Positions 3,158-22,424 of a stretch of 64,000 bases of DNA are shown here, in pieces. Numbering within the stretch: position 1 is the stretch's first letter; every line of letters begins with the position of its first letter. The position numbers and the translations under genes are program-made. The notes under the pieces are model-generated. The model was not told the origin of the DNA. It worked only from the letters and a program-made list of their open reading frames with translations, and did not search any database. The stretch comes from Escherichia phage Bf23: the sequence record OR083247.1. One strand, given 5' to 3'.

Positions 3158-3403
3158 TTAATTTAAAGGCATAAGGCTAGAACTAACACCACAAGCAACG
3201 GCGGCAATAAAACAAATCAGACCTAAACGCTTTGCCAATTTAGACTTACGCTTAAAATAATATGAATCTAAATCATTTTGAAAGTATGCAAATAATAATG
3301 AGGCCGCCATAATAAATAAGCCTAGAATTAACGATTCAGTGGGGTAAAAGATCATTTTAATAACTCCAGTCAAAGGGAAATTATAGTGGGGAATATTCCC
3401 CAC
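3158..3403 (-). CDS. small membrane protein
   Basis: 81-aa ORF with two hydrophobic segments. Confidence 0.35.
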   Translation of the reverse strand: MGNIPHYNFPLTGVIKMIFYPTESLILGLFIMAASLLFAYFQNDLDSYYFKRKSKLAKRLGLICFIAAVACGVSSSLMPLN

Positions 3404-3412
3404 TAATTAAAT

Positions 3413-5376: not shown

Positions 5377-5458
5377 TTATCCACAAGTTTATTAACAGCA
5401 CAAAATGATTTGACACGATAGGCGGCGATATAAAGACTTATCCACAGACTTATCCACA
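5377..5458 (+). promoter_or_regulatory. three direct perfect DnaA boxes TTATCCACA (5377, 5438, 5450)
   Basis: exact 9-mers read in sequence, inside a non-coding AT-rich region. Confidence 0.65.
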
Positions 5459-8993: not shown

Positions 8994-9063
8994 TGTGGAT
9001 AACGCCTCAAAATGGCTGGGATTCTGTCAAGTCAAATCGTGCTGTTAATAAGTCTGTGGATAA
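8994..9063 (-). promoter_or_regulatory. two DnaA boxes in reverse orientation (TGTGGATAA at 8994 and 9055)
   Basis: exact reverse complement of TTATCCACA read twice. Confidence 0.6.
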
Positions 9064-9089
9064 CTTAAATAACAGTGTTTCTCACTTCC

Positions 9090-9275
9090 GTTTTTAAATG
9101 CGAATCATTATCATTCGCATTTCACTATCTAACCGATAATCATTCCACTTTTTAAATGAGATTGATTCTCATTTCACTTTCTAAATGCGAATTATTATCA
9201 TTCTCATTCCGCTTTTTAAATGAGAATGATTCTTATTATCATTCTCATTTAGCGCAGGGCAATTGCCCTGCGCTT
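9090..9275. repeat. family of four related palindromic hairpin units plus a perfect 24-bp palindrome AGCGCAGGGCAATTGCCCTGCGCT
   Basis: units of form TTTAAATG(C/A)GAAT...ATTC(G/T)CATT, each an inverted repeat. Confidence 0.6.
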
Positions 9276-9880
9276 TTGTGCAAATCCGACATTTGCTCCA
9301 AGGGTTACGTGCTGGCGTATATGTGCAAATCCGACAATTTTTGGTAGTGTGCAAATCCGACCCGAAAAATTTTTATAGTGTGCGAATCCGACAATGAATT
9401 TTCCTAAAAACTCCAGCAATCACGAACTGCGTTCGAATCCTGTGGGATATGTGCAAATCCGACACGGTTTTTCTAGGGTTAAGATGTGCGAATCCGACAA
9501 GATTTTTGTGACTTCGATGGGAGGGTGTGTGATTGTATAGGTTTGAGGGGAAGATGAGAGAGCGAGAAAAATTTGAGGGGATAGAAGGATGTGGGCGCAG
9601 GATTGGTGCGGAGCACCTGATTTGCGGGGATTTTGGGGAAGAGTTGAGATAATTTGGGAAGATTTGAGATAGGTGCAGAAAAAGTAAAATTTTATTAGCA
9701 AAATGGGGCAAAATAGCTTGACAAGTGAAAATTCTTGTGGATCTAAAAACTCAGGCAATCACGGGCCTTCGGCCCGAAATAATGCTGCTATTTTCAGGAG
9801 AGTAAGAGTTCCTAAAAACTTAGGCGTTTGTGCAAATCCGACCAGTTTTTAAACTCTTGTCAGTGTGCAAATCCGACAGT
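9276..9880 (+). repeat. array of nine direct copies of 14-bp motif TGTGC(A/G)AATCCGAC, irregular spacing
   Basis: copies near 9278, 9323, 9349, 9379, 9451, 9486, 9829, 9864 and one more; a tenth lies at 11654 inside a CDS. Confidence 0.7.
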
Positions 9881-10341
9881 AATTTCTGGAAATGTGTTTT
9901 CAAAAAATGTCTTCTAGAAATAACCGCCCTCCCTATAACCGCCCTGTATTAACCGCCTATTGCTAGAGTTTCTAGGAACATGAAAACCGCCTGGGTTAAC
10001 TAGAGTTTTCCTAGAAACTTAGGAGTCTAGAAGAAAGTGTTGTGCCATCCTAGCAGATGAGCGGCAACAGGTGTATCATCTTGAACACAGATATTGCCAT
10101 TAAAAATATTTAAATAATATAAAGAAAAAGAGACCCCCAATTTCATGAGAGTCTCTCAGGGGGCGCGTGATTAATTACGTGAGTACTCATGCCGTCATAC
10201 CGCTGTTGCTAGGCCGCAAGCTATACGAGACATTCGTGTAATAATCATCGCCCCTAGAGTTAATCAACTAGAGTAGTTGTTAATCTATGAGATTATTATA
10301 ACATGTTTGGGTATGAGAATGCAAGAACTTTTTGTTAACTT

Positions 10342-11399: not shown

Positions 11400-12007
11400 T
11401 AACTACCCCTCTTATCTTCATTAAGAGCAGCTCCCAACGCCTCAAGGATAGTATCATTTATACTCCCAGGCCTAAGATTATTAAAGTGAGTAACATAGAT
11501 GGGACTTCTAAAACCTTCAGCATCCACAGGCGCTACGCTTTTCATATCAGATTCAAAAGCTTCTTGAGTATGTTTCAACTGTACAGAAGGCCCATAATCT
11601 TCACCAACTCGATAGGACTGATTAGACGACAGCGTACCACCACATGGAACATTGTGCAAATCCGACGTTATTTTAGGATTATTATTTAACAGTGCAATAC
11701 CACTTTTTGACCATGGATCACTAACATGAGTACTAGGACGGTTCACTTCAGTCTTCATGAGTTTATAACCAGCATCTATTAATGCATTAATAAGGTTATC
11801 AGCGGGAATACGAGCCTTGCCAAAAATCTTACGAGCGTTGTTGAGCCTACCTTCAAAGTCTTTACATGCTTTAATACTAGTGTGTGCAAAGGTTAGCTTC
11901 ATAGATTTGAACTGTACAGTGGCAGTTAAATCTTTAAAGCTATAATCCCACGTATTCAATTCGTGATCTGGTACTACTTGAATAGATTGTTGTGCGTATA
12001 AAGTCAT
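11399..12007 (-). CDS. hypothetical protein
   Basis: 202-aa ORF; contains one copy of the 14-bp repeat. Confidence 0.45.
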   Translation of the reverse strand: MTLYAQQSIQVVPDHELNTWDYSFKDLTATVQFKSMKLTFAHTSIKACKDFEGRLNNARKIFGKARIPADNLINALIDAGYKLMKTEVNRPSTHVSDPWSKSGIALLNNNPKITSDLHNVPCGGTLSSNQSYRVGEDYGPSVQLKHTQEAFESDMKSVAPVDAEGFRSPIYVTHFNNLRPGSINDTILEALGAALNEDKRGS

Positions 12008-21671: not shown

Positions 21672-22424
21672 TTATCCAACTAGTGGTTCTAGCTCTAAGT
21701 CACAGAAGTTATACACTTCTAGTTTAAGGTTATTGATACCATCGAATTTATTAACTAATTCGTGAGTAATATATTTTGCAGGAATACCACTTTCAGATGG
21801 ATGATCTGATTTAATAGTGAACTTCTGCTCAGCGGGCACTACATTTACTAGTAAAGAATCCATATCTAAATGGTTTGTTTCTCTGAGTAACTCTCCTTCA
21901 TTGGGGAATCTCACATCTGTTATTACGGCGACATCTGGGTCGTCTTTAGCGATGGATTGCTCCAGAATTATGAGCCAAATGCGTTCATGTACCAGCTGCC
22001 TTCCTAGCTCTGTTCCTACGAGCTGTAACATTTTTCTCGGAGAAATAAATAAACTATAAAGTCCGTCTTCTTTATTCTCTGAGATAAGTTGTTGAGGATT
22101 AAGATATTTTTCCTCAAAAATCGGCCAAACGTACGAGAAGTCTTCAAACTTATCGATACCGTATTTAAACCATACGTCTCTAGCTCGCTCCAATTGAGAT
22201 TGTGTGACCGTAAACCATTGGTCAATCTCTTTCCCCCTGCGCTCTCCTAGAAACTCTGGAGTTACACCGAGGATTACGGATGCAAGTTCATAAACAGGCT
22301 TAGCAAAACTATAACGACGGGCTAAATACATTGGATACGTGTCATTACACCAATCGATAATTAATTTTGCAACGGTATCTTTTCCCGAACCAGCTTCACC
22401 ATGTAAACCGACTAATACTGACAT
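21672..22424 (-). CDS. dnk: deoxynucleoside monophosphate kinase
   Basis: 250-aa ORF; Walker A 'GEAGSGKDT'; size matches T5 dNMP kinase. Confidence 0.6.
   Translation of the reverse strand: MSVLVGLHGEAGSGKDTVAKLIIDWCNDTYPMYLARRYSFAKPVYELASVILGVTPEFLGERRGKEIDQWFTVTQSQLERARDVWFKYGIDKFEDFSYVWPIFEEKYLNPQQLISENKEDGLYSLFISPRKMLQLVGTELGRQLVHERIWLIILEQSIAKDDPDVAVITDVRFPNEGELLRETNHLDMDSLLVNVVPAEQKFTIKSDHPSESGIPAKYITHELVNKFDGINNLKLEVYNFCDLELEPLVG

Follow-up and report, generated by a model that had tools for sequence, protein, structure and literature searches.

In Escherichia phage Bf23 (sequence record OR083247.1) a cluster of AT-rich repeat units, closed by a GC-rich palindrome, occupies positions 9090-9275 of the 64,000-nucleotide stretch analysed here (the window). 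Alignment identifies this element as the orthologue of 'Repeat Region 3' of phage T5, located inside the terminal repeat, where the first-step-transfer (FST) DNA has its distal end. At the level of sequence, its AT-rich units form a tandem array of predicted Fur operators, 19-bp boxes of the 7-1-7 type with the consensus AATGAGAATCATTCTCATT, and the final palindrome is read as a separate element, a putative terminator-type stem-loop that overlaps a nick motif. The explanation that best covers the whole, and that is on balance probable, is that the repeat block of the T5 injection stop signal (iss) is a Fur-operator array with DnaA, to which a distinct palindrome/nick element is joined. The function of the element (transfer stop, end processing or origin) we infer.

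The window represents the left end of a T5-like phage genome, and many genomes of Tequintavirus and its relatives share 88-93% identity with the region. No match to it was found in plasmid sequences. Positions 9090-9275 align column by column with positions 9468-9668 of T5 (AY587007) at 91% identity. In that record the aligned stretch is annotated with direct repeat C copies 1-4, palindromes E-J and the 'major single-stranded nick 1, 7.9%', and in AY543070 positions 9140-10149 are labelled 'injection stop signal (iss)' and the interruption is placed on the minus strand. A dmp-like gene, A1 ('DNA transfer protein') and A2 ('DNA binding protein') lie upstream of the array, which, as in T5, sits in an extended non-coding region at the right-hand end of the left terminal repeat. 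The order of elements is also that of Repeat Region 3: direct repeats C and palindromes E-J, with the IRD'/IRC' DnaA boxes upstream and direct repeats D downstream. Bf23 differs in having one (half) unit fewer, seen as a 17-nt gap in the alignment. As an object the element is already known, having been described in T5 from 1987 onward (Heusterspreute 1987, Wang 2005, Davison 2015/2020; direct repeats C and E, palindromes E-J). Davison, comparing 25 T5-like phages, described Repeat Region 3 and stated that the function of its repeats defies guessing. The FST shear point calculated there for T5, 9618, falls within the last unit (the homologue of unit 4).

The classical 19-bp Fur consensus, GATAATGATAATCATTATC, is readable as two overlapping 7-1-7 repeats (PMC11353095). 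A consensus of the phage units was compiled from 47 distinct sites in 29 T5-like arrays; it agrees with the extended Fur consensus AATGATAATCATTATCATT in 17 of 19 positions. The core is shared (TGAGAAT-C-ATTCTCA in the units, TGATAAT-N-ATTATCA in Fur operators), and the long phage units hold boxes that overlap at a 6-bp offset, like the classical box. The two deviating positions are symmetric: the phage units prefer G/C there, whereas the Fur consensus has T/A, and the second-choice base at both is the Fur base. At least 14 of 19 matches to GATAATGATAATCATTATC are found at 13 positions in the window, five of them in 9094-9246. Another strong classical match, GATAATCATTATCATC at 227-251, is located within the dmp-like gene, some 230 bp in from the left end. 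Close relatives keep it, the Pantoea and Vibrio relatives do not, and it was set aside as not significant and probably a coincidence of coding sequence.

Matrices of phage units and of host operators recognize each other's sites. A symmetric matrix made from 18 phage units only was run over 66 kb of E. coli K-12 (606-632 kb and 150-190 kb). In the first segment the four best matches are in the fepD|entS, fepB|entC (twice) and fepA|fes intergenic regions; in the second the best match is 54 bp upstream of the fhuA start codon. The fepD-entS, fepB-entC, fepA-fes and fhuA promoters are all Fur-controlled, and fhuA also encodes the T5 receptor. In the reverse test, where the classical consensus picked the host sites for the matrix, the units come out highest in the window. 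Agreement with the 19-bp consensus and its 7-1-7 inverted repeat is thus accompanied by cross-recognition with Fur-regulated promoters, as expected of Fur boxes. The second-best match of the phage matrix in 150-190 kb, ATTGAGAATCATTCTGAAT, is in the map-rpsB intergenic region at position 189581 (entry L128, 39582), and to our knowledge it is not a recognized Fur site.

In bacteria, identical copies of the 21-mer AAATGAGAATCATTCTCATTT turn up in 107 species belonging to many phyla, compared to about 0.14 expected by chance. The 10 nearest genes downstream of its bacterial copies include two FUR-family regulators, FeoB, a TonB-dependent receptor and rubrerythrin, as well as two solute-binding proteins that we read as iron-type. 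Rfam gave nothing above the gathering threshold for the region. A weak match to PrrF, a Fur-regulated small RNA, scored 31.5 against a gathering threshold of 90; it rests on the 5' segment of the model, AAAUGAuAAUuaUUAUuAU, which we take to be the prrF Fur box and to which unit 2 aligns. This match and one to rliI are explained as 'Fur box plus hairpin'. Where the phage units depart from bacterial Fur operators is in their setting, a tandem array of 3-8 predicted sites in non-coding DNA that overlaps no identifiable promoter. A promoter scan detected no convincing promoter within the units. The literature, apart from older subscription papers that were not searchable, yielded no link of Fur to T5, to Tequintavirus or to lytic phages, and the units are not described as Fur boxes in the Davison 2020 preprint. 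The Fur reading of the T5 iss units appears to be new.

Four units begin with TAAATG(C/A)GA, at 9095, 9153, 9182 and 9217, and this 9-mer is found only once more on the plus strand of the 64 kb. An earlier note, made from the letters alone, had pointed out these units and the terminal palindrome, and the sequence is as it described. Its family of four is nevertheless incomplete, since two more degenerate units are present at 9068-9086 and 9132-9150, for a window total of four strong and two weak Fur-like units. Bit scores for the units come from a symmetric matrix built on phage units only. Unit 0 (9068-9086, AATAACAGTGTTTCTCACT) is a degenerate Fur-like site 29 bp before unit 1 and is kept in all sampled T5-like arrays. 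Unit 1 (9095-9123; 29.9 bits) has overlapping Fur-like 19-mers at 9097-9115 and 9103-9121, with 17/19 matches to the extended consensus. It is followed by a degenerate half unit (ACCGATAATCATTCCACTT, 9132-9150) of 4.5 bits, a place where T5 and relatives have fuller units. Unit 2 (9153-9175; 29.5 bits) holds one Fur-like 19-mer at 9155-9173 (AATGAGATTGATTCTCATT), and unit 3 (9182-9210; 28.1 bits) holds two, 9184-9202 and 9190-9208. Unit 4 (9217-9251; 30.1 bits), which corresponds to direct repeat C copy 4 and palindrome I of T5, has three overlapping 19-mers, starting at 9219, 9225 and 9231. The family is in turn part of a larger ordered block, with two DnaA boxes before it and six GTGCRAATCCGAC repeats after it.

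The units have a palindromic look, and most of them can fold. The arms of unit 1 (9096-9108/9110-9122, 13 nt) are 92% complementary and those of unit 4 (9217-9230/9238-9251, 14 nt) 100%; in unit 2 the stretch 9155-9173 is a 19-bp palindrome-like sequence. As single-stranded DNA, 9085-9285 folds with -40.5 kcal/mol, compared to -14.3 ± 2.9 kcal/mol in shuffles (z = -9.0). Folded singly, units 1, 2 and 4 and the final palindrome give -8.5, -5.7, -11.1 and -13.4 kcal/mol, all good hairpins. Unit 3 is a weak inverted repeat and a poor hairpin (-2.2 kcal/mol, z = -0.8), so that the description of all four units as inverted repeats holds well for only three of them.

Comparison of relatives argues that the AT-rich units are protein sites and not primarily hairpins. 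A degenerate unit pattern applied to viral contigs recovered mostly unrelated contigs and was replaced by an anchor in unit 0, which extracted 29 distinct T5-like arrays. These are 182-359 bp long and contain 3-8 strong sites each, with preferred spacings of 35, 29 and 23 bp. For unit 1, 22 variants were compared: 76.8% of the cells of the extended helix are paired, compared to 77.2% in shuffles, and the covariation is 0.081 compared to 0.082. By this measure there is no sign that arm pairing in the AT-rich units is kept up by evolution. The invariant columns of unit 1 are the Fur-like core, and 'half' units without a partner arm are frequent and persistent across the arrays. The units are read as sites for a protein because covariation is absent from unit 1, half units are retained and the number of copies ranges from 3 to 8. 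Their palindromic look would then come from two conserved half-sites, as for binding of a dimer, and not from selection for pairing. The suggestion of the earlier note that the units are cruciform-capable therefore finds no support in the AT-rich part of the cluster, where unit 1 pairs no better than shuffles and where neither unit 3 nor the half units can fold into a hairpin.

The array is retained over a considerable evolutionary distance. In Pantoea phage AAS21, whose A2 is 51% identical, the order is DnaA box, unit 0, 7-8 units, CCTGCGCT and direct repeat D. More distant relatives have other repeats at this place. In Vibrio phage 70E35-1 (entry L130, 5360-5590) five copies of the AT-rich repeat TATTATTGTA..TATTGTA.GACAAA replace the array, and Serratia phage Kamaji (entry L126, about 1150-1260) has AATAACGTAAGGTGAYTAATGATT repeats; AATAACGTAAGGTGAYTAATGATT occurs once in Pantoea AAS21, and a related entry is L131 (4020-4050). 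All of these distant Vibrio and Serratia relatives keep the DnaA boxes, together with repeats that are analogues of direct repeat D. Many T5-like relatives possess, some 357 bp upstream of unit 1, one more Fur-like box of perfect consensus (e.g., L004 3159, L019 6369 and L049 12925), a box that is absent from the window.

The final palindrome behaves differently. The sequence AGCGCAGGGCAATTGCCCTGCGCT at 9251-9274 (T5 palindrome J) is a perfect 24-bp palindrome, the longest perfect one in the 64 kb, and its 12-nt arms were reached in just one of 100 first-order Markov simulations. The second-longest, TAGTGGGGAATATTCCCCACTA, is 22 bp long and lies at 3384-3405, at the start of an 81-aa open reading frame beside A2. 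In relatives the stem varies, to AGCGCAGAGCAATTGCTCTGCGCT in one and GCGGGGGCAATTGCCCCCCGC in another, and the loop is enlarged in three. Double changes in the stem amount to three pairs compared to 0.4 expected (2 of 500 shuffles) and are compensatory. Of the whole family, only this terminal GC-rich palindrome is a likely conserved stem-loop. A GC-rich stem-loop with compensatory changes is what a terminator would have. A run of at least five T after the stem is missing, however, with TTTT on the plus strand only (TTAT in some relatives), and the terminator scan made no call.

The right arm of the palindrome contains a nick motif. The major T5 nicks have the consensus 5'-R/GCGCRGG-3', and mutants without nicks are viable (PMC3517423). 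Bf23 has an exact match on the minus strand at the position homologous to T5 nick 1: positions 9266-9274 read CCCTGCGCT on the plus strand, i.e., 5'-A/GCGCAGGG on the minus strand. In T5 the nick is on the minus strand between A and GCGC of AGCGCAGG, and CCCTGCGC is the annotated sequence at both nick 1 and nick 2. The virion nick predicted for Bf23 should thus be on the minus strand between 9274 and 9273 (nick 1, 7.9%). Within the window CCCTGCGCT is found only at 9266-9274 and 22235-22243, the homologues of T5 nicks 1 and 2. The context of the second copy (minus strand, A/GCGCAGGG) is identical to that of the T5 'major nick 2, 18.3%', which is inside dnk in T5. The last T5 palindrome is annotated as 17 bp (AY587007), whereas the Bf23 homologue is a perfect 24-mer; because it is perfect, the nick motif is also present on the plus strand, at 9251-9259, and the consensus stands on both strands. 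Bf23 thus shares with the T5 interruption sites the exact minus-strand consensus at nick 1 and a copy at nick 2, and differs in the added plus-strand copy and in that its nick is predicted from sequence. CCTGCGCT is invariant across 14 Demerecviridae variants, including Klebsiella, Serratia and Pantoea relatives that lack the palindrome and have only this segment. Of the roles that the earlier note had offered for the palindromes, that of a nicking site agrees with the T5 annotation for the last one.

The same units are not restricted to T5-like phages. Arrays of them are present in unrelated myoviruses of 136-150 kb (Phapecoctavirus, Certrevirus and others). For example, Escherichia phage anhysbys (Phapecoctavirus; entry L123, 1487-1600) has four tandem Fur-like units with 29-bp spacing, and Cronobacter phage CR3 (Certrevirus; entry L124, 1500-1615) also has four. 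The anhysbys array is matched by 638 phage records. In both of these genomes (about 149 kb) the array is in a long non-coding region between convergent genes, upstream of lineage-specific direct repeats and, in our reading, just downstream of promoter-like sequences. A conserved GC-rich segment, acatacag.agagga..gccaccccacggcg.aaaggcggggctaac, precedes the arrays of anhysbys and CR3 (L123 1270-1350, L124 1280-1370); it is downstream of a promoter-like sequence and has no Rfam match. In Escherichia phage BME3 (Justusliebigvirus) the 342-bp direct terminal repeat defined by PhageTerm holds two Fur-like boxes (entry L260, 53-77 and 248-266), and four CAACAAATAG iterons begin directly after it. 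Further Fur-like boxes of BME3 are at L260 1159 and 1217, and the repeat region seems to be present once more at the right end of the record. Other viral contigs contain 3-5 tandem boxes beside sequences that we read as strong promoters. One contig from IMG/VR (L036, 1810-1890) carries GCTGAATGAGAATCATTCTCATTTGGAAAA as three perfect tandem copies of 30 bp, close upstream of two sequences that, in our reading, resemble strong sigma-70 promoters, and a 359-kb IMG/VR contig (L005, 8339-8450) has a 5-unit array downstream of a promoter-like sequence.

This distribution bears on the identity of the binding protein. No A2 homologue was found among records of 136-150 kb, A2 homologues being confined to records of Demerecviridae size, and A2 was accordingly rejected as a general binder. 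No Fur homologue or other FUR-family protein is encoded in the FST region, and a phage-encoded Fur homologue was likewise rejected as the binder there. The simplest common denominator of the arrays would be a shared host protein.

Ordered repeats flank the array on both sides. Two DnaA boxes (TTATCCACA, minus strand) at 8994-9002 and 9055-9063 form a pair 61 bp apart inside the repeat ATAAGTCTGTGGATAAC, the second being directly upstream of unit 0. The 64 kb contains five perfect DnaA boxes compared to 0.56 expected, all in two FST non-coding regions. They lie at 5377-5458 and 8994-9063, three on the minus strand and two on the plus, and match Davison's description of IRC/IRD and IRD'/IRC' in T5. 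On the other side six iteron-like copies of direct repeat D (GTGCRAATCCGAC) follow in one orientation, on the plus strand, at 9278-9498. There are nine copies of GTGCRAATCCGAC in all, every one on the plus strand, compared to 0.07 expected, with the extra copies at 9830, 9865 and 11654. DnaA boxes, an AT-rich region and iterons follow one another in the order seen in iteron origins. The right end of the terminal repeat, transferred from the T5 LTR end (AY587007 position 10139), is predicted at about 9743, some 470 bp to the right of the palindrome. Copies of GTGCRAATCCGAC straddle this predicted end, and the isolated one at 11654 is among early genes. Just inside the predicted end, at 9542-9675, there are purine-rich short repeats, TTTGAGGGGA (twice), TTGAGATAA and TTTGAGATAGG; a similar cluster of TTTGAGGGA / TTTGAGATAA comes after the array in anhysbys (L123, about 1818-1860).

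How might a Fur-operator array serve a phage? Host Fur-Fe2+ dimers that exist before infection would load onto the array upon its entry into the cell, and DnaA would be bound beside Fur at the two adjacent DnaA boxes. On the FST segment that enters last, the two could assemble a nucleoprotein complex of host proteins. Such a complex would most likely serve to hold or mark the FST end, as the injection stop signal, or else to organise the boundary of the terminal repeat close by. A wider proposal can be offered only tentatively. It holds that the repeats of the T5 iss work as arrays of host Fur sites, that unrelated large virulent enterobacterial phages have placed such arrays in non-coding DNA within or beside their terminal repeats, and that Fur, with DnaA, is recruited as an architectural protein or sensor of the host for DNA entry or end processing and may supply the missing host component of the pause in two-step injection by T5. 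The phages to which this would apply are T5-like siphoviruses, Phapecoctavirus, Justusliebigvirus, Vequintavirinae and other viral contigs.

Several points weigh against the Fur-array explanation. All of the Fur claim comes from sequence. It is not evident how cytoplasmic Fur on DNA that has already entered would halt the DNA behind it, and we know of no report that fur is a host factor required for T5 plating. The context is unusual for an operator, with promoter matches of 9/12 at best in the units and no gene downstream. The palindrome that closes the array has just four T after its stem and escaped the terminator scan. Vibrio T5-like phages and Serratia phage Kamaji, with their other repeats, have at most one Fur-like site here, which means that Fur cannot be universal in the two-step transfer of the family. 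The T5 stop function itself was assigned from the map position of the shear point and from conservation, never by dissection. The same reservation applies to the role in DNA-transfer stop suggested in the earlier note: the homologue is annotated as iss in T5, but that assignment is one of position and conservation.

Among other explanations, a packaging or terminus module is rather unlikely, though it accounts for much of the layout. Here the array would bind a host accessory protein (Fur, in the manner of IHF at lambda cosB) and aid a terminase acting on direct repeats D and cutting about 470 bp away. The array is indeed inside the terminal repeat and near its right end, and 6+2 iteron-like repeats in one direction come directly after it and straddle the predicted end. 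The two Fur-like boxes and adjoining CAACAAATAG iterons of the BME3 terminal repeat are comparable, and variation in copy number is typical of arrays of accessory sites. At lambda cosB (IHF site I1 among terminase R sites), as at iteron origins, host-factor sites are likewise interleaved with one-directional repeats beside a processing site. This is an analogy only, however, with no sequence relation, and any binding of a terminase or initiator here, or of terminase to the D repeats in particular, would be hypothetical. Synteny with BME3 gave no placement of the anhysbys array relative to the genome ends, and the Vibrio and Serratia relatives make do with other repeats. An iteron-type origin, in which DnaA boxes, AT-rich unwinding units and iterons act as in plasmid oriV, P1 oriR or F ori2 and the likeness to Fur boxes is secondary or architectural, is improbable. 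Two consensus DnaA boxes, a G+C content of 27% in the 161 bp of 9090-9250 (compared to 39% for the window), the nine GTGCRAATCCGAC repeats and a resemblance to oriC noted by Davison would suit an origin, as would the position of the anhysbys and CR3 arrays between what we read as promoter-like sequences and lineage-specific repeats. Yet T5 origins were mapped near the genome centre, with the replication genes outside FST DNA (Davison), no initiator gene is adjacent, and a plain unwinding element needs no 19-bp consensus identical to that of bacterial Fur operators.

It is quite improbable that the palindromes act as DNA structures, i.e., as cruciforms or hairpins that stall translocation of DNA through the tail or a membrane channel or are recognized by a nickase or the packaging machinery. 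The single strand does fold far better than shuffles (z = -9), units 1, 2 and 4 and the final palindrome make good hairpins, and the stem of the last is kept by compensatory changes with expansion of its loop tolerated. In the AT-rich units, however, the helix of unit 1 shows no more covariation than shuffles, unit 3 and the half units are not hairpins, and what is conserved is one specific sequence common to bacterial Fur operators. Relatives without the final palindrome still have the nick motif. T5 virion DNA is linear and nicked, so there would be no supercoiling to drive cruciform extrusion. Operators for a phage protein whose likeness to Fur boxes is coincidental are very doubtful. A dimeric A2 would be one candidate, as palindromic repeated sites fit a dimer, A2 is encoded in FST DNA and annotated as a DNA-binding protein, and both A1 and A2 are required for second-step transfer. 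Against A2 are the same units in the 136-150 kb myoviruses, with no A2 homologue found in records of that size, and a match to the Fur operator too specific for coincidence. We give an equally small chance to regulatory roles, whether a decoy in which multicopy boxes titrate Fur and derepress host iron uptake, or a Fur-controlled phage promoter or small RNA ending at the final palindrome. Up to eight boxes per repeat and two repeats per genome would suit a decoy; weak promoter-like hexamers occur within units, the final palindrome with TTTT could end a plus-strand transcript, the weak PrrF match spans 'Fur box plus body plus terminator', and arrays in other viral contigs stand beside what we read as strong promoters. 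A decoy derepressing host genes is unlikely, as there is little to gain in a cell where T5 switches off host expression and has half of the host DNA degraded within 4 minutes. As for a transcript, promoter matches reach 9/12 at best, the PrrF score is far under its gathering threshold, and the putative RNA body consists only of boxes and would vary in length from 182 to 359 bp.

How T5 pauses after 8% of its DNA is a question that dates from the 1960s. Fur operators beside DnaA boxes provide a cheap, concrete and testable hypothesis for this entry pause. If Fur does not bind, the finding stays an orthologue of a long-annotated T5 feature. If Fur does bind, this would be a first example of the iron repressor being recruited by lytic phages to non-coding DNA close to the ends of their genomes, and such recruitment would apparently have occurred more than once.

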